Part shown: positions 46,271 through 53,417 of the stretch, one piece after another
How the letters are laid out: the number at the start of each line of letters is the position of its first letter
How positions within the stretch are numbered: the first letter of the stretch is position 1
Origin: an uncultured Actinomycetes bacterium
Lineage (GTDB): Bacteria > Actinomycetota > Actinomycetes > Nanopelagicales > Nanopelagicaceae
Length of the DNA: 64,000 nt
Direction: 5' to 3'
NCBI GenBank assembly: GCA_903834515.1
Contig: CAILJM010000039.1
Span: 10,600-74,599, forward strand
Translations under genes and position numbers: made by a program
Notes under the pieces: generated by a model
Seen by the model: the letters and a program-made list of their open reading frames with translations, nothing else
The model's database searches: none
Told to the model about the DNA's origin: nothing

Positions 46271-47134
46271 TTACAAACCAATCTTGCATGCTGATTTACG
46301 GACTGAGAGTGCCTGATCAGCAGCTGACTTGATTGTCTGTGCCTGAGTTGGTTGGTTAGCAATCGCTTGGTTGTAGCGAGTTGTCATTGAATCAACCTGA
46401 GCCTGAGCACTTGTGAGCTTATTCTGGAAGTTATTAGGGACCTTCTGAAGGTTCGCAATATCTTTATTTCCGCTATTTACTGCAGTGTCATAGCTTGCAT
46501 AAGCGCGAATCCAGTTTCCAAAGTTCTGCACACTGACATCAGGATTGCTTAGCGCACTTATTGGGCTATTTTCCCAGCCTGCAATTTGGGTAGCGGTGTA
46601 CTTCGCAGCAAGAATGACCTTGGTCGCGTCGCGTTGCTTGCCCGCGTTATCACGCTTTGCAGTTACTTCTGCGATATGGGTAGTGATCGCAGAAATTGCC
46701 GCATCGATACCAGTCACCTTGATAGGGACTGATGGCTTCACGGTGTGGTCATAGCCAACGATGTACTGCTTTGTCTTGGTCGCTGCAATCTCTTGATTGA
46801 GGACATCGATTGAATGCTTTGAAGCATCAATTGAGGCTTTAATAGCAGTGAGAGTAGAAGTCTGTGATGTTGTAAATCCGTCGTACTCACCCTTAGCTGT
46901 TGCATAGGCAGTTCCTGCCGAGATGCAATCGGCGGTGACCCAGGTAAGCCCTGCAGGTGTTCCAGCTGGGTTAGTTCCACAGGTGTACTTGGTGCTTCCA
47001 ACTGTCTTCTTCGCCTTCGCTGGGGCGCACTTGGTGCCCTGCTTGACGACCGCTGCATGGGCTGGGGTGATCCCCGAAAGCGCGAGCGCGGCAACTGCAA
47101 GAACAGGAGCCAACTTTCTGAAGTGCTTTGCCAT
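46271..47134 (-). CDS. secreted protein of unknown function
   Basis: 287 aa with a signal peptide (ITPAHA/AV). A Cys-containing N-terminal module (GTKCAPAKAKKTVGSTKYTCG...LTWV) is followed by long Ala/Thr/Gln-rich segments predicted to be helical. Confidence 0.6.
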   Translation of the reverse strand: MAKHFRKLAPVLAVAALALSGITPAHAAVVKQGTKCAPAKAKKTVGSTKYTCGTNPAGTPAGLTWVTADCISAGTAYATAKGEYDGFTTSQTSTLTAIKASIDASKHSIDVLNQEIAATKTKQYIVGYDHTVKPSVPIKVTGIDAAISAITTHIAEVTAKRDNAGKQRDATKVILAAKYTATQIAGWENSPISALSNPDVSVQNFGNWIRAYASYDTAVNSGNKDIANLQKVPNNFQNKLTSAQAQVDSMTTRYNQAIANQPTQAQTIKSAADQALSVRKSACKIGL

Positions 47135-47338: not shown

Positions 47339-47411
47339 GTCCCAGTAGCTCAGTGGATAGAGCGACCGCCTCCTAAGCGGTAGGCCACGGGTTCAACTCC
47401 CGTCTGGGACA
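47339..47411 (+). tRNA. tRNA-Arg (anticodon CCT)
   Basis: The acceptor stem is GTCCCAG/CTGGGAC with discriminator A. The D-loop is AGCTCAGTGGATAGAGC, the anticodon loop is CT-CCT-AA, and the T-arm is GGGTTCAACTCCC. No CCA is encoded. Confidence 0.9.
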
Positions 47412-47430
47412 CAAACGTCTGGAGCAGTTT

Positions 47431-49125
47431 TTACACGTTATTTGAGAGAAGTAGCCCACTGAAAATAATATAAATAAGGGCCCCCAAAACCACGACGCCG
47501 AGGATTCGATAGGCCTTAACCCCGTACTTCGTTACTCGCCAATCTTTGGCCCCGTCCTTTCCAAATAAAGTGAGTAATTTAAGAATCAAGCCAGGAATAC
47601 TCAGAATGACAAAACTCAATAAAACATAGGTTCGTGCCGATGGATAACGATTTTGTACGACTCTGGCTAAGAAATAACCAACGATTGTCATCGCCAACAT
47701 TTCAATGATTCCAGTCGGCATCCATTTTTGAACTGCGGCCGATTTAGGGAATCGATCTTCAAAAATACCCATGATGAGAGGTAGCGCGAAAAGCAGGACT
47801 CCGATCGCCAGCTCTGCGGAGATTCCTATAAATTTTCCTGCGATGGTTGCGAAAATCCCCACCTTGAAGGCAGTCGCTAAAATTTGTTGGAAGATCGAGC
47901 GTTCTCGGTATTGTGGCTGCAACTTTGCAAGGCGATTAGGGAAAAACTTGAGTGAGATATCTTCGCCAGCAAATCGGGGAATAATTAATCCGGCAGCCCA
48001 AAATCCCACGGTGCTTGCATGCACGGTGAGAGGGAGTTGAAGCCCTGATAATCCAGGAAGTCCTAAGACAATTTGCTCGACCACCCAACCGGTGAGGATG
48101 CTTGCAAGCGCATAATCGGTAATGCGCTCCCAAAGAGATGTGAAATCCCAAACTGCTCGACGCAATGGGCGAAATGCGCTCGCCAGTATTGCTGGGCTAA
48201 ATGCTAGGAGGGAAACCCCAGCAACGGTGAGGGCTTCATTCAAGCTTGTGATATTTCCCGCGAATAGAATCGCAAGTGCGAAGGAGAGGCCGGCAAGAAG
48301 GCCGGCAAGTGCATCTATGACTCCCAGTGCCATCATCGAGATAATAATTAATAGTGAGGGCGGGAGTGCTTCTTGATGGTTTGCTCTCGTTGCAACAAAA
48401 CCTAATGCGAGAGAGATTGGATAAAGGGCAATCGCAAACGGCCCGAAGAGAGAGCGAAGGTAATTTCCGTCAGAGACGATTCTTGTGATGAGGGGTGAAA
48501 ACCCGGAGATAACAACGGCCGAATGCGTAAAGAACCCATCGACACGTTGAGTTGCTGGCCTTTGCCAGGCATTAGCTTTATCGCCCCGCCCAAGTTGAGT
48601 ACCCGCTACCAACGCGGTCCCCTTCGAAAGCTGAGCCAGGTATCCCTGTTGTGATGAAGTTTGTGTTGCAGAATTTTCCTCGCTTGTACCGATCTTTGTC
48701 GAAAGAGCCCCTGCCCCAGTTGCCAGAGTGAGCGCTGCGAAGGCAATAATTGCAGTGTCGGTAGTTCGCTTAGGGTTTGAGAGCGGGTTGTATGGTGGGA
48801 GTTCTTCTCGAGTACTCGAAGCATCAAGTTTCTTTTGAGTAATGAGCGCAGTGAGATCTGGACAAATATTATCCCAATGGATTACTCCATATGTGTCTTT
48901 GCAGAAAAGAACGCTTTTGGTAAAAGTAGATTGATTCATTCCCGTAATCTGGACATCAATGCTCTTAAAACCCGGGGAAGTCGAATTTGGAATTTGTATA
49001 TTCAACTCCTTGGCATCTGCCTCGGTAATCGTCGAGTACAGAGTCGATGTTGGAACTTCTGCGGCCTGAGCGAGGGTTGAGAAATTAATTGCAATAAAGC
49101 TAAGGAGCAAGATTCTCTTCATCAT
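47431..49125 (-). CDS. large polytopic membrane protein of unknown function with an N-terminal exported domain
   Basis: 564 aa. It has a signal peptide (TLAQA/AE), a soluble domain of about 100 aa, an anchor helix, a Ser/Thr/Gln linker, and then about 10 TM helices. Its start forms an ATGA overlap with the stop of the upstream 668-aa gene. Confidence 0.65.
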   Translation of the reverse strand: MMKRILLLSFIAINFSTLAQAAEVPTSTLYSTITEADAKELNIQIPNSTSPGFKSIDVQITGMNQSTFTKSVLFCKDTYGVIHWDNICPDLTALITQKKLDASSTREELPPYNPLSNPKRTTDTAIIAFAALTLATGAGALSTKIGTSEENSATQTSSQQGYLAQLSKGTALVAGTQLGRGDKANAWQRPATQRVDGFFTHSAVVISGFSPLITRIVSDGNYLRSLFGPFAIALYPISLALGFVATRANHQEALPPSLLIIISMMALGVIDALAGLLAGLSFALAILFAGNITSLNEALTVAGVSLLAFSPAILASAFRPLRRAVWDFTSLWERITDYALASILTGWVVEQIVLGLPGLSGLQLPLTVHASTVGFWAAGLIIPRFAGEDISLKFFPNRLAKLQPQYRERSIFQQILATAFKVGIFATIAGKFIGISAELAIGVLLFALPLIMGIFEDRFPKSAAVQKWMPTGIIEMLAMTIVGYFLARVVQNRYPSARTYVLLSFVILSIPGLILKLLTLFGKDGAKDWRVTKYGVKAYRILGVVVLGALIYIIFSGLLLSNNV

Positions 49126-51128
49126 GGCGCAACCGATCTAAGAGATACTTGAATTCTCTGGCCAATGAATAAATTATGAAGTGAGATATGCAGAAGATTG
49201 CTTCCAGATGTCCCACCGTGATCGAAATTGACTGTTTCAAATACTGGAGCTGGTATCACGGTAGAAATTCCAGTGATTCCTGACATTTGATATGTTGGAA
49301 TTGGCTCTGCCGAAAGTAGTGGGCGCACGGCATTCATCTGTGACCTCGTTGGCCTAGGAGTGGGAGTAGGGGTTGGAGTGGGAGTTGGAGTGGGAGTGGG
49401 GGTTGGAGTGGGAGTTGGAGTGGGAGTTGCGATTGCAGTTGGTGCCACTTTGTTGTAAATGACAATCGGGATTTGGCTCTTCTTTCCGCAATCGGCGAGA
49501 AAGGCGACTGAGACGGCGTACTTCGTTCCAGGGGTTAGATTTACGAGAGATCCATCCCAGTCAGGGCTTGTGAAACCAAAAGGAAAGCCTGATGGATAAA
49601 GGATTTCTGGCCCATAGAAGCGGATTTTGCCAACACCAGTGAGGTCCCAAGAGAGCCGCGCTGTCGTGCTTCCCGCTTCGCCTGGGTGAAAGAAGAGTTC
49701 ATTAATAATGACAGGACATGGATCTGGCGGGACCGTCGGAGTTGGAGTCGGAGTCGGGTGTAACGGTTCCCTCATGAGAACAGGCGTTGGAGTTGATCTT
49801 GGGGTTGCGGTTGATGTTGGGGTTGATGTTGGGGTTGATGTTGGGGTTGGCGCCGTGATGGTGATTGTGAACGAACCAGAGGAAGTTTGTGGAGTTGACG
49901 AGAGTGAATCAGTCACACTGATTGTAAAAGTAGTGCTGGAAGTGAGAGCAGTAGGCGTTCCGTGGATAAGTCCATCTGTCGCATCTAACGTCAGCCCTGA
50001 TGGGAGCGTGCCCGTCAAGAGCGTAAAGGTGATCAGGCCAGAGCCTCCAGTGGCCGTTATTGGTCTGAAAGAGAGTCCGACATTCTGAATTGCGGAGGTA
50101 CTTGCGATTGCTGTCGTTGCGACGAGGAGTTCGTAGTAATTGAAGGAGTTCGAGAGTGTCGCGGTTTGCGAATCGGGATTCACCACCGATACTGAGTAAG
50201 TTCCAGCGGCTGCAGCCGAGTTGATACACGTGATAGTTGTTGAATTAAGCGTAGTAATCGAGCATGAGTGCGCGCCGACGGCTACCGTCGCACCAAGACG
50301 AAAATTTGATCCCGTTATCGTGATTGACATCGAGCCAGTTGTAAACCCACGAATCGGTGTGATGCTTGAAATTGTAGGAGTCGGCCAAGGAATGATCTGA
50401 TCGTGAATGATATGCGTCGACGCTCCAAAGGTTACTGCGCTTAGCCCATAGATCGAACCACGCACTATTGAGGAATCGCCTGTGGTTACAGCGGTGCCGC
50501 CAATGATGTTGCCAGGAAGATCCGTATTTGCGCCGAAGGTGAATGCAGCACCGGCTGTCCAATATATATGTGATGGCTGGGCGCCATTGATAAAAGTCAC
50601 CTTTGTCTGCGCCACTACATTCATTGCAACGGTACTTCGAAAAATAAAGATTGAGTCAAAATTGCCGCCGCCATCGAGGGTGATATTTCCAGCGATGCTC
50701 ATTGCCGTACCTGCTGCCGGACCATAGATTCCAGGAGTGAGCGTTCCTCCTGAGAGACTAGTTGCGGTCGGTGTCTCAACCAGTGAATTGATGAGCGCCA
50801 AAGTTTCTGCGACATGGGAGAGAGCGGTGGAGGCGGTGACCGTCGAACTTTCAATCGCTCCAAAGCCTGCATTGGTAAGCGCGAGAGTTTGATCGCCATC
50901 AAGTGCGGCGGGGGAGGATGCAGCCAATAACGGAGCGGTTCCAGTGATTGCAGGAGTGGCACCTAAGACAAAAGCCCCACCGACGATCAGGGAGTAATCC
51001 GCGGCGGTCTGGAGATTAACGTCTGCACTTGTTGCGGCAAAAGATGGGATTACAGGGATGCTTTGCACGAGAAAACACCCTGCAATCACCATCGTCAAGG
51101 CCCTTAATGCGACCCTTTTGATATTCAT
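49122..51128 (-). CDS. secreted multidomain protein: DUF3494 (ice-binding-like) + IPT/TIG + Ig-like + FN3-like, with Pro/Thr linkers
   Basis: 668 aa with a signal peptide. The DUF3494 signature is LTPGIY...ITLDGGGNFDSIFIFRS....INGAQPSHIYW..GAAFTFGAN..L.GNII. The IPT-like part is ITITGSNF..GATVAVG...C. The Ig-like part is GTLPSGLTLDATDGLIHGTP. The linkers are TPTS repeats and (TP)12. No LPXTG motif or TM tail is present. Confidence 0.75.
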   Translation of the reverse strand: MNIKRVALRALTMVIAGCFLVQSIPVIPSFAATSADVNLQTAADYSLIVGGAFVLGATPAITGTAPLLAASSPAALDGDQTLALTNAGFGAIESSTVTASTALSHVAETLALINSLVETPTATSLSGGTLTPGIYGPAAGTAMSIAGNITLDGGGNFDSIFIFRSTVAMNVVAQTKVTFINGAQPSHIYWTAGAAFTFGANTDLPGNIIGGTAVTTGDSSIVRGSIYGLSAVTFGASTHIIHDQIIPWPTPTISSITPIRGFTTGSMSITITGSNFRLGATVAVGAHSCSITTLNSTTITCINSAAAAGTYSVSVVNPDSQTATLSNSFNYYELLVATTAIASTSAIQNVGLSFRPITATGGSGLITFTLLTGTLPSGLTLDATDGLIHGTPTALTSSTTFTISVTDSLSSTPQTSSGSFTITITAPTPTSTPTSTPTSTATPRSTPTPVLMREPLHPTPTPTPTVPPDPCPVIINELFFHPGEAGSTTARLSWDLTGVGKIRFYGPEILYPSGFPFGFTSPDWDGSLVNLTPGTKYAVSVAFLADCGKKSQIPIVIYNKVAPTAIATPTPTPTPTPTPTPTPTPTPTPTPRPTRSQMNAVRPLLSAEPIPTYQMSGITGISTVIPAPVFETVNFDHGGTSGSNLLHISLHNLFIGQRIQVSLRSVAP
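49356..49427 (-). repeat. (ACN-CCN)12 coding microsatellite, a (Thr-Pro)12 linker
   Basis: The plus strand reads (AGT/GGT)(GGG/TGG/AGG) repeated 12 times. There is an internal duplication of about 30 bp (49371-49400 versus 49401-49430). Confidence 0.9.
49811..49846 (-). repeat. three tandem 12-bp units encoding a PTST linker
   Basis: GTTGATGTTGGG is repeated three times on the plus strand. This corresponds to TPTSTPTSTPTST in the 668-aa protein. Confidence 0.85.
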
Positions 51129-51145
51129 TTCACATTTTCGATTGA

Positions 51146-51337
51146 TTACTTATTTGCAGAATCTACTTTAATGACATCTGCATGCACCTTGTCAGCCGCA
51201 TCAGAAATTGATGCTGCAACATTTCCAACAATCTCTTTCGCTTTATCTTTTGTATCAGAGATGAGAACTTCTGCAGCATTTTTCAATTCTTCTTTTGCTG
51301 CATCTAGATGGTCATGAACTTTATTGTTCTGTTCCAT
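51146..51337 (-). CDS. small hydrophilic helical protein (LEA/ElaB/CsbD-like composition)
   Basis: 63 aa rich in Lys/Asp/Ala/Glu (KDKAKEIVGNVAASISDAADKV), with no TM segment and no Cys. It is preceded by an AT-rich 122-nt spacer and ends 17 nt upstream of the 668-aa gene. Confidence 0.45.
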   Translation of the reverse strand: MEQNNKVHDHLDAAKEELKNAAEVLISDTKDKAKEIVGNVAASISDAADKVHADVIKVDSANK

Positions 51338-51459
51338 ATTTTTTCCTAAGTAATTAATTGAAGTCGCCCTTCAATGAGCTACTTGCTCGAACGCGACAAC
51401 TAATTAATAAGACTATAGCACCCTTTGGATAATTGAAAAGTTTTCAATACTGAGACATT

Positions 51460-52050
51460 TCATGGTCGTAACGTTGCAACAACTACATATCGCTTGGGAG
51501 CAGAACCAATAAATGTAAATGGATAACATGTTGAAAGAGTAAGCGTCGCAATTTTTGTGGGAACAATTACGGTTCGATCGTTTTGATCGACGATTCGGAT
51601 TCGCTCGACCTTATAATTAAAAATTCCATCTTGAGTCGTAATGAGTATTGATGAACCAAGTTTTACTTTGCCTAAATTTGAAAAGACCGTATCTCTATGA
51701 CCAGATAAAACAGAGTTATCAATAACGCCAGGCAGCACACTCCCAACGTAATGACCAACTCCTTCTTTGAGTTCTTGAGTGTCAGTACCTTGAAAGATAT
51801 TCACGGTCTTCTTAATTGATGGGATATTGATCGTCCCAAGAAATGTTCCGATCGGCACCGATGCGCTCTCACGAATGGTGCTAACTTCATTTTGAAGCCA
51901 GATGGCCTGTGCCGATGGGAGCAAGTCCTTATCTTGTTCTTGCGCCGAACTGTAAATTTGAACTGCCGATACGCCAGCTACCGCAAGCCCCCCGACCACG
52001 AATGTGATCGAGAGGATTGCTGTGACGGTCAGTCTGACCCTTCTGGACAT
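51460..52050 (-). CDS. sortase (small single-TM type, class D/F-like)
   Basis: 196 aa with an N-terminal TM anchor. The catalytic His is in LSGHRD, the Cys is in TLSTCYP, and the Arg is in KRYVV. Confidence 0.85.
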   Translation of the reverse strand: MSRRVRLTVTAILSITFVVGGLAVAGVSAVQIYSSAQEQDKDLLPSAQAIWLQNEVSTIRESASVPIGTFLGTINIPSIKKTVNIFQGTDTQELKEGVGHYVGSVLPGVIDNSVLSGHRDTVFSNLGKVKLGSSILITTQDGIFNYKVERIRIVDQNDRTVIVPTKIATLTLSTCYPFTFIGSAPKRYVVVATLRP

Positions 52051-52070
52051 GGCTCTTGGTAAGTAACGAG

Positions 52071-53417
52071 CTACTTAACCAAAACCTTACGAGTTCCGAA
52101 GCCAAAGCCTCCTACGAGTACAAGTGCTCCACCCAACACGAGCATGAGATTCCATGGAGTTGAGGTCTTGGGCAACTTTCCACCAGTTGTAGTTGGTGTG
52201 TGTGTCGCCGTGACGGTTGGGCTGGCAACAGGAGTCGGAACTGCAACCCGCGCCGTGACTCCAATGTCGTAATTTGTTCGAGTGACGGTCACATTGTCAC
52301 CGATCCCAAGTGTGATAGTTCCTCCACTACTAATAGGACCACTCCAGACTCCTCTGTAACCACTTGTGGGAGTTTCAGTTAGAACATAGGTTCCGACCGG
52401 AAGTGTGTATGGACGCCCAATTGTGCCGACGCCAGTTAGTGGACTATCAGCTACCTCTAGTCCATTGTGTTTAACATGGATGACAAAGGATGATGCGGTT
52501 GCAGTCCCTTGATACTTGTTTACAACAACCTTCACAACATGAAGAGTCGCGTAATGGACTACAGATGTTGAAGTGGCGGAAGGGGCAGCAGTCGAACTTA
52601 CTGATGTTGCTGAGGAACTTGCTAACGGAGTTGCCGTTGCCGATGTTGTGGAAGCAGAAGTTGGTGTGGCACCCGAAGTGGATGTCACAACAGGAGCTGG
52701 AGTTGCGCAACTGTTATTCACAATTGTGGTCCCGCCAAGCGTCACAGCCCCCGTTACCGCAACCAATTGACCATTGACTGTTGATCCTGCACCAGTACTA
52801 ATGGATGCTTGAGCAATCACATGTCCAACCATCGTCGAGCTTGTGCCAAGAGTTGCAGAACTACCGATCTGCCAAAAGACATTACAGGCTTGTGCGCCGC
52901 GGACAAGTGTGACGGTGCTCGAAATTCCTGTCACAAGAGTTGAGTCTGCGCGAAAGACAAATACCGCGTTCGGATCGTTTGCTCCATCCAGGATCACGTT
53001 TCCTGTGATCTGAAAAGTCCCGTTGCTATATGCCCCAGGCAAGAACGTTCTATCAACACCAAGTTCAACACCTGTTGTGGCGCCACTGTGGTTATCTGCG
53101 AGTGCTGTTGCCGCAGATGTAAGTGCGCTGATTGAAGCACCGCCGAGAGTTACCGCACCTGAGGGCGATATAGAACCTGTCGGAGCGGTGGCACCACCAA
53201 CTCCAATCTCACTACCGGCCGTGCCAGTTATTCCACTTGGCGTAGCACTGGTCACAGCGGATTGAGCTAGGACGCCATACGAACTGGCAGTACCCAAAGT
53301 AAGAGGTGTAGTTGAAGCGTTTGCCGACCCAGGCAAGAGATTAATGAGTACGGCAGCAACTGTAAAAGTGAGAGCTAATTTCTTAATAAGTGGCGCAAAT
53401 TTTCTATTGCTGTCCAT
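52071..53417 (-). CDS. cell-wall-anchored DUF3494 (ice-binding-like) protein with a prealbumin/Cna-B-like domain and an LPKTS sorting signal
   Basis: 448 aa with a signal peptide. The DUF3494 signature is SYGVLA.SAVT......ITG, LPGAY, ILDGANDPNAVFVFRA, GAQACNVFWQIGSSATLG and VGHVIAQASI. A Ser/Thr/Ala linker and a beta-sandwich (HVVKVVVN...GTYVLTE) follow. The C-terminus is LPKTS (nt 52161-52175), a hydrophobic helix and RKVLVK. Confidence 0.8.
   Translation of the reverse strand: MDSNRKFAPLIKKLALTFTVAAVLINLLPGSANASTTPLTLGTASSYGVLAQSAVTSATPSGITGTAGSEIGVGGATAPTGSISPSGAVTLGGASISALTSAATALADNHSGATTGVELGVDRTFLPGAYSNGTFQITGNVILDGANDPNAVFVFRADSTLVTGISSTVTLVRGAQACNVFWQIGSSATLGTSSTMVGHVIAQASISTGAGSTVNGQLVAVTGAVTLGGTTIVNNSCATPAPVVTSTSGATPTSASTTSATATPLASSSATSVSSTAAPSATSTSVVHYATLHVVKVVVNKYQGTATASSFVIHVKHNGLEVADSPLTGVGTIGRPYTLPVGTYVLTETPTSGYRGVWSGPISSGGTITLGIGDNVTVTRTNYDIGVTARVAVPTPVASPTVTATHTPTTTGGKLPKTSTPWNLMLVLGGALVLVGGFGFGTRKVLVK

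Follow-up and report, generated by a model that had tools for sequence, protein, structure and literature searches.

How surface proteins are held on the cells of a planktonic actinobacterium is the question raised by a gene cluster in the DNA of an uncultured member of the Nanopelagicaceae (contig CAILJM010000039.1 of the assembly GCA_903834515.1), of which a stretch of 64,000 nucleotides (nt), hereafter referred to as the window, was analyzed. Five open reading frames (ORFs) lie one after another on the minus strand of the window, and they are here called genes A to E in the order of transcription: A (52071-53417; 448 amino acids, aa), B (51460-52050; 196 aa), C (51146-51337; 63 aa), D (49122-51128; 668 aa), and E (47431-49125; 564 aa). 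The gaps between them are 20, 122, 17, and −4 nt, respectively. An initial annotation had described this layout and had read it as a single surface system, in which two ice-binding-like DUF3494 proteins (A and D) are wired to a sortase of their own (B) and to a membrane protein (E) that could be placed in no family. The coordinates, lengths, and gaps all agreed with that description, and most of the domain calls were borne out in hidden Markov model (HMM) searches: the Pfam model of DUF3494 (PF11999; gathering score, 28.7 bits) matched A with 119.5 bits (2e-34) and D with 86 bits, B scored 105 bits as a sortase domain (Pfam), and the TIG/IPT domain of D scored 49.4 bits. Only the FN3 domain assigned to D stayed below its threshold (16.9 against 25 bits). 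The proposed wiring, however, did not hold: inspection of the D sequence found neither a sortase signal nor a transmembrane (TM) segment. Thus, the cluster is not a single system with both DUF3494 proteins tied to the sortase, and the questions become what holds D and what E is for.

The arrangement of the genes in related loci provides the first part of the answer. The window (A-B-C-D-E), locus L002 (C-D-E-A-A'-B), and locus L073 (E-D-C, divergent from A-B) each contain the complete set of five gene types, whereas C is missing from locus L007, where the order is A-B-D-E with 4-nt overlaps and the genes adjoin an MMPL gene as they do in the window. The expectation that the five genes co-occur in relatives was therefore right for these loci, but the A-B and C-D-E parts also occur separately. 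L071 is syntenic with L002 and keeps C, A, A', and the sortase gene, while its D is reduced to a 76-aa N-terminal stub (L071:3788-4018) and E is absent (nothing was found by tblastn). L074 has the sortase and its substrate only, without D and E, and L040 and L009 have C-D-E without a sortase. From these four loci, it follows that D and E stand or fall together, that A-B is independent of them, and that C travels with D. The cluster is thus composed of two modules, which are often but not always neighbours in the acI/Nanopelagicaceae genomes, and the conserved unit is not the five genes but a cargo protein with a C-terminal tag together with E. We lean toward the view that these are two adjacent surface-display modules of an acI (Candidatus Planktophila-like) actinobacterium, each presenting a DUF3494 domain on a stalk, where A would be attached by the sortase B and D would be held by docking of its tag on E as the anchor.

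The evidence for the second module starts from the end of D. This protein consists of a signal peptide, the DUF3494 domain (aa 46-237; 50418-50993, minus strand), the TIG/IPT domain (aa 251-331) and a He_PIG immunoglobulin (Ig)-like domain (aa 338-425; 36.3 bits in Pfam), which together occupy 49854-50378 on the minus strand, a PT linker, the FN3-like region, a second PT linker, and the C-terminal tag. The tag, SNLLHISLHNLFIGQRIQVSLRSVAP, is about 25 aa long (49125-49202, minus strand) and is composed of a strand, an NLxxGQ turn, and another strand, without any hydrophobic or TM helix. The last 25 or so residues are conserved in 48 aligned cargo C-termini, though the bodies of the cargo proteins are unrelated, and in both the main clade and the subclade of the window, the tag is preceded by low-complexity spacers that are PT-rich or Ala/Lys-rich. 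The main-clade tag ends with ...NSAKATVTGLKPGQKIKVTVNVKGK, while the subclade tag ends with ...LHISLHNLFIGQRIQVSLRSVAP in D and with ...LRIILNNLVPGQQILITLKSVKP in L002.

When an HMM of the tag was run against about 2,800 ORF C-termini, it matched only genes located upstream of E, and D was the sole match among the 254 ORFs of the window. Since D was contained in the training set of this model, the test was rerun without D: the leave-one-out model found D with an E-value of 6e-4, the next-best ORF of the window having an E-value of 40. A subclade model built from six sequences without that of the window detected D at 5.5e-9, and it also reached the tags of the main clade (2e-4 to 2.5e-3). In two loci, a single E is preceded by two tagged genes, which hints that one E can serve several cargo proteins; the second tagged cargo gene lies directly upstream of the cargo-E pair (L032:6-5492 and L035:43-1599). 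In another locus, L013, a tagged ORF (232-723) was observed about 8 kb from E.

The pairing of the tagged cargo with E is tight at the gene level. At the D/E junction of the window, the sequence reads GCG CCA TGA TGA AGA, so that the ATG of E is overlapped by the stop codon of D (ATGA); the databases start E at the second Met (563 aa), and the exact 564-aa sequence has no match there. The same relationship was found in about 50 of the approximately 56 loci for which upstream DNA is available, the upstream gene ending 1-4 nt inside E. The cargo proteins encoded there have lengths between 230 aa and more than 3,300 aa, a large number of them being truncated by the 10-kb flank. Cargo proteins that match DUF3494 are confined to the subclade of the window (E more than 43% identical), and in more than 40 loci E is paired with a cargo that gives no DUF3494 match, such as giant Ig/coiled-coil proteins. 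The E relatives and the 62 genome loci, the latter found by a search pattern that restricts them to the closer and mostly split relatives, come almost all from metagenome-assembled genomes (MAGs) of Nanopelagicaceae or Candidatus Planktophila (acI). 'Bifidobacterium breve' is the record title of three freshwater MAGs (L011, L013, and L043) whose cargo-E loci are of the typical acI kind, and two further cargo-E loci are titled 'beta proteobacterium' (L061) and 'Rhodoluna sp.' (L044); these five records are probably mislabelled or mis-binned. It was also observed that a conserved 646-aa secreted protein with an HExxH-like motif (FAHEYGHLLG) and a Lys/Ala-rich C-terminus is encoded convergently with E in two loci (L004:11729-13669 and L005:5528-7468). 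Judging from this motif, it may be a metalloprotease, and it could act on the cargo.

The E family is large. An exhaustive profile search gave 824 representatives at 50% identity, of which 557 had E-values of 1e-30 or lower, and the close relatives comprise 90 cluster representatives. Among the 258 family members in hand, 111 are E-like proteins with an N-terminus of their own (the split form), and 110 are fused single chains, in which the E domain occupies the C-terminus. The fused forms have a median length of 974 aa and a maximum of 5,995 aa (a word-indexed profile search for them gave 12 matches), and their passengers are adhesin-type domains, namely, BspA-LRR, FG-GAP, MBG, NIDO, DUF4082, BNR, and fn3, while no Pfam model spans their membrane domain. 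One fused gene stands alone amid pur genes in a MAG of the Actinomycetota; the taxonomic assignment of the fused forms depends on a single gene next to it, which clusters with a MAG protein labelled 'Actinomycetota bacterium'. In three fusions (P0056, P0057, and P0060), a DUF3494 domain is joined directly to the E membrane domain, without the junction domain described below. These natural fusions and the translational coupling of D and E indicate that E is truly linked to the DUF3494 proteins, as the initial annotation had suggested. One of the three, P0060, was named 'type VI secretion system secreted protein VgrG' by the Joint Genome Institute (JGI); this name is almost certainly mistaken, the beta-solenoid having misled the annotation.

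The relationship between the split and fused forms was approached with a prediction that was set beforehand: if the acI pair is a split protein, the residues of the fused forms just before the region corresponding to the E hairpin should resemble the tag. This likeness was found. The fused forms have there a continuous Ig-like domain of about 100 residues, for example LTVTGDGFLPDSVAIVTLHS-TPTTLGT...LPTSLDTGVHHVEVAYTG, which is intact in 39 fused proteins and is separated from the membrane domain by a median of 26 residues. An HMM of this junction domain matches the N-termini of E proteins at its positions 59-100, with E-values down to 7e-7 (3.5e-3 for E of the window), and the cargo tails all align in register with its positions 14-42, the individual tail matches being weak (3e-4 to more than 1). 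The two halves, one from the tail and the other from the N-terminus of E, tile the junction domain without overlap. In addition, when chimeras of the tail and mature E were constructed in silico, 31 of the 48 aligned with the model as one domain, and the true tail gained 3.4 bits on average, as compared with −0.6 bits for shuffled tails and −0.5 bits for internal cargo segments. Because the tag and the E ectodomain correspond to the two halves of a domain that the fused forms have in one piece, D probably docks on E by strand complementation.

The mechanism would then be as follows. D would be exported by the Sec pathway without an anchor of its own, and E would be made from the overlapping downstream gene with its own signal peptide. 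The fused type is a single chain composed of a passenger, an Ig-like junction domain (in many members), and a polytopic membrane domain of about 450 residues. The acI protein would be split inside the junction domain: the first two strands stay with the cargo as the tag of about 25 residues, and the N-terminus of E is made up of the others. Outside the membrane, the tag would re-form the junction domain with the E ectodomain, and E would thereby serve as a non-covalent membrane anchor of D.

The features of E itself bear on this proposal. E begins with a signal peptide (aa 1-21, ending with AQA before AE) and an N-terminal ectodomain (aa 22-95), which together occupy 48841-49125 on the minus strand; by its strands in the AlphaFold2 (AF2) models and its match to the junction HMM, the ectodomain resembles the second half of the junction domain. 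It has the conserved Cys75 and Cys88 and, in the AF2 model of E, only two or three beta strands. The membrane domain (aa 109-564; 47434-48801, minus strand) starts at a YNPLxxP motif and contains nine invariant residues (R215, D219, D271, R319, R323, R334, D337, R384, and E388), while no Cys, Ser, or His is invariant among the 25 aligned family sequences. The estimate of about 11 TM segments in the initial annotation was close: 11 hydrophobic segments are clear, and the signal peptide and possibly a 12th crossing have to be added to them. A 12th crossing, located within residues 143-222, agrees much better with the positive-inside rule, and the conserved Arg-rich motifs FRPxRR...WERxTDY and RxxxED would then be cytoplasmic. 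That E could not be assigned to a known family was confirmed. No family was found in Pfam or NCBIfam, and neither of the two AF2 models (predicted template-modelling score, pTM, of 0.71, and then 0.77 with a core above a predicted local distance difference test value, pLDDT, of 90) has a relative in the PDB by Foldseek, the best E-value being 0.06 with TM-scores of 0.2 or lower. A nearly invariant GxGD motif (GRGD, aa 179-182 of E) occurs in a hydrophilic loop, and the invariant Asp271 lies in the middle of the third TM segment (GVIDALAG). These features recall the aspartyl intramembrane proteases, but a GxGD-type aspartyl protease was not adopted for E: the loop with the motif is hydrophilic and modelled at low confidence, and neither fold nor sequence evidence supports this reading.

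Several points weigh against the docking of D on E. One is that the tag of the window is the most diverged variant: an HMM of the main-clade tags only fails to detect it, and its E-value against the junction HMM is 1.8. Its membership therefore rests on a chain of homology, given by the leave-one-out and subclade models, plus its position. Another is that, in the AF2 model of a chimera of the D tail and mature E of the window, the tail was disordered (pLDDT, 32-40) and showed no strand pairing; the test was weak because the tail columns of its alignment were mis-aligned, but it lends the docking no support. A third is that the topology of E is ambiguous. The last is that a domain of about 450 residues with nine invariant charged residues exceeds the needs of an anchor, which suggests that E probably does more than anchoring.

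Among the alternatives, two rank highest, though both are unlikely. In the first, E would be a sorting enzyme that recognizes the tag, removes it, and attaches the cargo covalently to lipid or to the wall. C-terminal sorting-tag systems of this kind are PEP-CTERM/exosortase, GlyGly-CTERM/rhombosortase, and PGF-CTERM/archaeosortase, whose tags combine a motif with a TM helix and a basic cluster, and whose partner enzymes have a catalytic Cys or Ser/His. The layout of D-E is similar to theirs, with a short conserved tag behind a low-complexity spacer, diverse and unrelated secreted cargo, and a polytopic partner encoded next door; the invariant Asp, Arg, and Glu residues of E, its GxGD motif and intramembrane Asp271, and the loci with two tagged cargo genes per E can also be read in this way. 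However, the D tag is a beta-hairpin without a TM helix, and E has neither an invariant Cys, Ser, or His nor any sequence or fold likeness to a known sorting enzyme. Moreover, the tag has its homolog in part of a domain that 39 single-chain relatives keep intact and apparently uncleaved, where an enzyme would find nothing to sort. We therefore regard a sorting function of E as unlikely.

The second alternative is that the split is an evolutionary scar: tag and ectodomain would be remnants of a gene fission, D would be a soluble secreted protein, and E would work alone. The failure of AF2 to dock the tail and the divergence of the window tag are in line with this idea. On the other hand, a useless remnant would decay, whereas about 50 loci retain a strongly conserved tag on cargo bodies that have been exchanged; the stop/start overlap is maintained, D and E are lost together, and a second tagged cargo gene stands upstream of one E. 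We give the scar the same small chance as the sorting enzyme.

The reading closest to the initial annotation is very unlikely; it takes the five genes as one integrated system for adhesion to ice or particles, with A and D both in need of the sortase and of E. In its favour, the five gene types are found together in four lineages, A and D are both similar to proven ice-binding proteins, and the loci with DUF3494 cargo come, by their record titles, from boreal/subarctic samples, although the sampling is biased. These points are outweighed by the lack of any sortase signal in D, by the occurrence of A-B without D-E (L071 and L074) and of C-D-E without A-B (L040 and L009), and by the fact that E mostly partners cargo without a DUF3494 match; besides, many DUF3494 proteins have no known ice activity. 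Finally, one could take E for a transporter or a housekeeping membrane protein that has nothing to do with its neighbours and is adjacent by chance. Only the transporters at the top of the non-significant Foldseek rows (E-values of 0.06 or higher, TM-scores of 0.2 or lower) would point to this idea, and it is effectively refuted by the approximately 50 loci in which E overlaps a tagged cargo gene and by the 110 fusions to adhesin-type passengers.

The docking of D on E as a non-covalent anchor thus remains the reading that we prefer, and it can be compared with known split-domain tethers, though by analogy only. Examples of such tethers are the mucin SEA domain, the GAIN domain of adhesion G-protein-coupled receptors, and donor-strand complementation in chaperone-usher pili. 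As in these cases, D-E would hold a passenger on a membrane part by beta-strands that complete a shared beta-sandwich. Those systems arise by autoproteolysis of one chain or by pilus assembly, whereas D-E is split at the gene level, with two signal peptides, and has no sequence relationship to them. Tentatively, and with less assurance than for the docking of D, cargo-tag plus E may be a new way for monoderm bacteria to hold surface proteins, in which the passenger would be either in the same chain or, in the most abundant bacteria of fresh water, an exchangeable plug-in joined through the split Ig-like domain; the hairpin would be a portable address tag, and the charged core of E might have a second activity in signalling, release, or export.

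The first module is more conventional. A consists of a signal peptide, the DUF3494/Ice_binding beta-solenoid domain (aa 50-232; 52722-53270, minus strand), a Thr/Ser/Pro-rich linker, a SpaA_2 prealbumin-like stalk (aa 290-379; 52281-52550, minus strand; 26.8 bits against a cut-off of 25), and a cell-wall sorting signal (52074-52175, minus strand). The signal, which had been recognized in the initial annotation, has the layout of the LPXTG type: LPKTSTPW (aa 415-422, preceded by GGK), a hydrophobic segment, and the basic tail RKVLVK, the sequence ending with ...GGKLPKTSTPWNLMLVLGGALVLVGGFGFGTRKVLVK. It scored just below the cut-off of TIGR01167 (15.5 against 15.9 bits) and below that of the LPxTATN-specific model NF058670 (16.5 against 32 bits), and it is therefore related to, but distinct from, the LPxTATN signal. 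A consensus of GGxLPxT[SA][TS][PT]WGN was obtained from eight sortase-adjacent homologs, and one relative carries LPATATPW. In all six of the sortase loci inspected (the window, L002, L007, L071, L073, and L074), the gene directly upstream of the sortase gene ends with this consensus followed by a TM segment and a basic tail. The substrates in these loci have the SpaA-type stalk in common, to which a DUF3494 head may be added; the L074 substrate is a stalk without a head.

B has an N-terminal TM segment and the triad His118 (GHRD), Cys175 (TLSTC), and Arg187 (KRY). It exceeds the cut-offs of two NCBIfam models of class D sortases (NF058671, 194.7 against 140 bits; NF033746, 168.6 against 165 bits), and its closest solved structure is PDB 2ln7 (1e-28), which we take to be the class D sortase SrtC of Bacillus anthracis, recognizing LPNTA. 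Judging from these matches, B is a class D-type sortase with A as its dedicated substrate, and it shares with such sortases the triad and the substrate gene immediately upstream. It differs from the known class D systems in the signal of its substrate, LPxT[SA][TS][PT]WGN, in its planktonic actinobacterial host, and in its substrates, which have DUF3494 domains and/or SpaA-type stalks. By analogy with the established mechanism of the sortase family, A would be exported, its signal, consisting of LPKTSTPW, the TM segment, and the basic tail, would be cut by B, and A would be joined covalently to peptidoglycan. The mechanism of A-B is thus one already known for the sortase family, to which the pair adds a distinct signal variant.

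As for the heads, the best matches among the solved ice-binding proteins in the PDB were 7bwx (5e-22), 6eio (8e-20), and 5uyt (2e-19) for A, and 5uyt (1e-15) and 6bg8 (8e-11) for D, 6bg8 being also among the best sequence matches for A. The structure 6bg8 is that of SfIBP_1 of Shewanella frigidimarina, a proposed DUF3494 ice adhesin (Vance et al. 2018, as cited in PMC9957290), and the 1.5-MDa ice adhesin of Marinomonas primoryensis is a functional analogue (PMC5550230). A and D share with the DUF3494 ice adhesins the DUF3494 head, an Ig-like/TIG stalk, a signal peptide, and a putative cell-surface tether. The tether, however, is different: a sortase for A, and the proposed split-domain polytopic anchor for D. 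Ice adhesion by the heads of A and D is plausible from these matches. In the literature searched, no paper was found that links DUF3494 with a sortase, or the Nanopelagicales with a sortase or ice binding, and the combination of genes in this cluster is not described there, in agreement with the initial annotation. The stalk of D varies in length: tandem repeats of 6, 12, and 18 nt encode its PT linkers (window 49336-49448 and 49786-49856), the protein is 654, 668, or 672 aa long in different metagenome samples, and the copy number of the PT repeat is the sole difference between L069 and the window.

C is a hydrophilic protein of 63 aa with an amphipathic helix and no signal peptide. Its position just before D is conserved in the DUF3494 subclade; the homologs in L002, L071, and L073 have 47-54% identity, and similar proteins are encoded upstream of D in L040 and L009. 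Profile scans gave only sub-threshold matches of C to Apolipoprotein and YtxH. As pure conjecture, C might be a partner of E on the cytoplasmic side, if the Arg-rich loops of E are cytoplasmic, or a stress protein of the late embryogenesis abundant (LEA) type.

The last subject is the genomic setting, since the initial annotation had seen an old or degraded island in an AT-rich region. The G+C content (GC) of the cluster is indeed lower, 0.484 against 0.506 in the remaining window, and the tetranucleotide distance has its maximum for the whole window at 47-54 kb (z = 2.5-2.7); but the GC difference is small and is driven by B (0.44) and C (0.365), and the deviant composition may partly be due to Thr/Ser/Pro-rich coding. 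A tRNA-Arg(CCT) gene (47339-47412) adjoins the cluster, as had been noted, at 18 nt from the stop codon of E; it lies on the plus strand and the cluster on the minus strand, so that the two are convergent. It was the only match of an Rfam scan. Planktophila genomes are known to carry tRNA-flanked additive genomic islands (PMC12817590), and this gene set is not described in that paper. Like those islands, the cluster adjoins a tRNA gene, has deviant tetranucleotides, and varies in presence and arrangement between lineages. Unlike them, it has no integrase, none being found among its neighbours in accordance with the initial annotation, and no tRNA-derived repeat, and its GC is only two points apart. 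No tRNA-derived direct repeat bounds the cluster (the repeats found are the coding repeats of the PT linkers in D), and the closest loci have no tRNA nearby, so the adjacency is not conserved. Neither the integrase nor the att-like repeat expected of an integrase-type island was found. Thus, the tRNA flank and the tetranucleotide deviation were confirmed, but the support for an island is weak, and the cluster is better described as flexible-genome content than as a demonstrated integrative island. Two other cargo-E loci adjoin tRNA genes, one with a tRNA-Met directly after E (L036:11688-11762) and the other with a tRNA-Arg(ACG) just before the cargo (L004:6137-6210); cargo-E loci are thus repeatedly seen near tRNAs, in differing genomic contexts.

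The cluster and its flanks are identical in at least four independent metagenome samples, the flanks kept across the samples being TetR, MMPL, and purU on one side and a 287-aa protein, Rieske, GGDEF, and photolyase on the other. The 287-aa protein (46271-47134), encoded beyond the tRNA gene and at the same position across the lineage, is secreted and Ala/Thr/Lys-rich, has a Cys-containing motif at its end, and belongs to no Pfam family. A promoter-like site occurs in the 122-nt gap between B and C (51412-51439, minus strand; TTTTCA, a 16-nt spacer, and TG-TATAGT) and is a possible start of a C-D-E transcript. Together with a terminator-like hairpin after purU, it fits two transcripts; however, the number of sites found by the promoter and terminator scans was not above that expected from shuffled sequences.

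The acI/Nanopelagicales are the most abundant bacterioplankton of lakes, and little is known of how they hold their surface proteins, while their cell surface matters for grazing and phage pressure. The sortase half of the cluster is ordinary and adds the signal variant LPxTSTPWGN and the DUF3494 proteins as sortase substrates. The other half gives the 564-aa orphan E a working role, as a putative membrane anchor for exchangeable and often giant surface proteins, and defines a family with at least 824 cluster representatives, for which neither Pfam nor NCBIfam has a model. If the docking is true, the tag and E would be a natural two-part pair useful for surface-display engineering. Since the C-terminal tag is searchable, the displayed cargo of any such genome can be listed.

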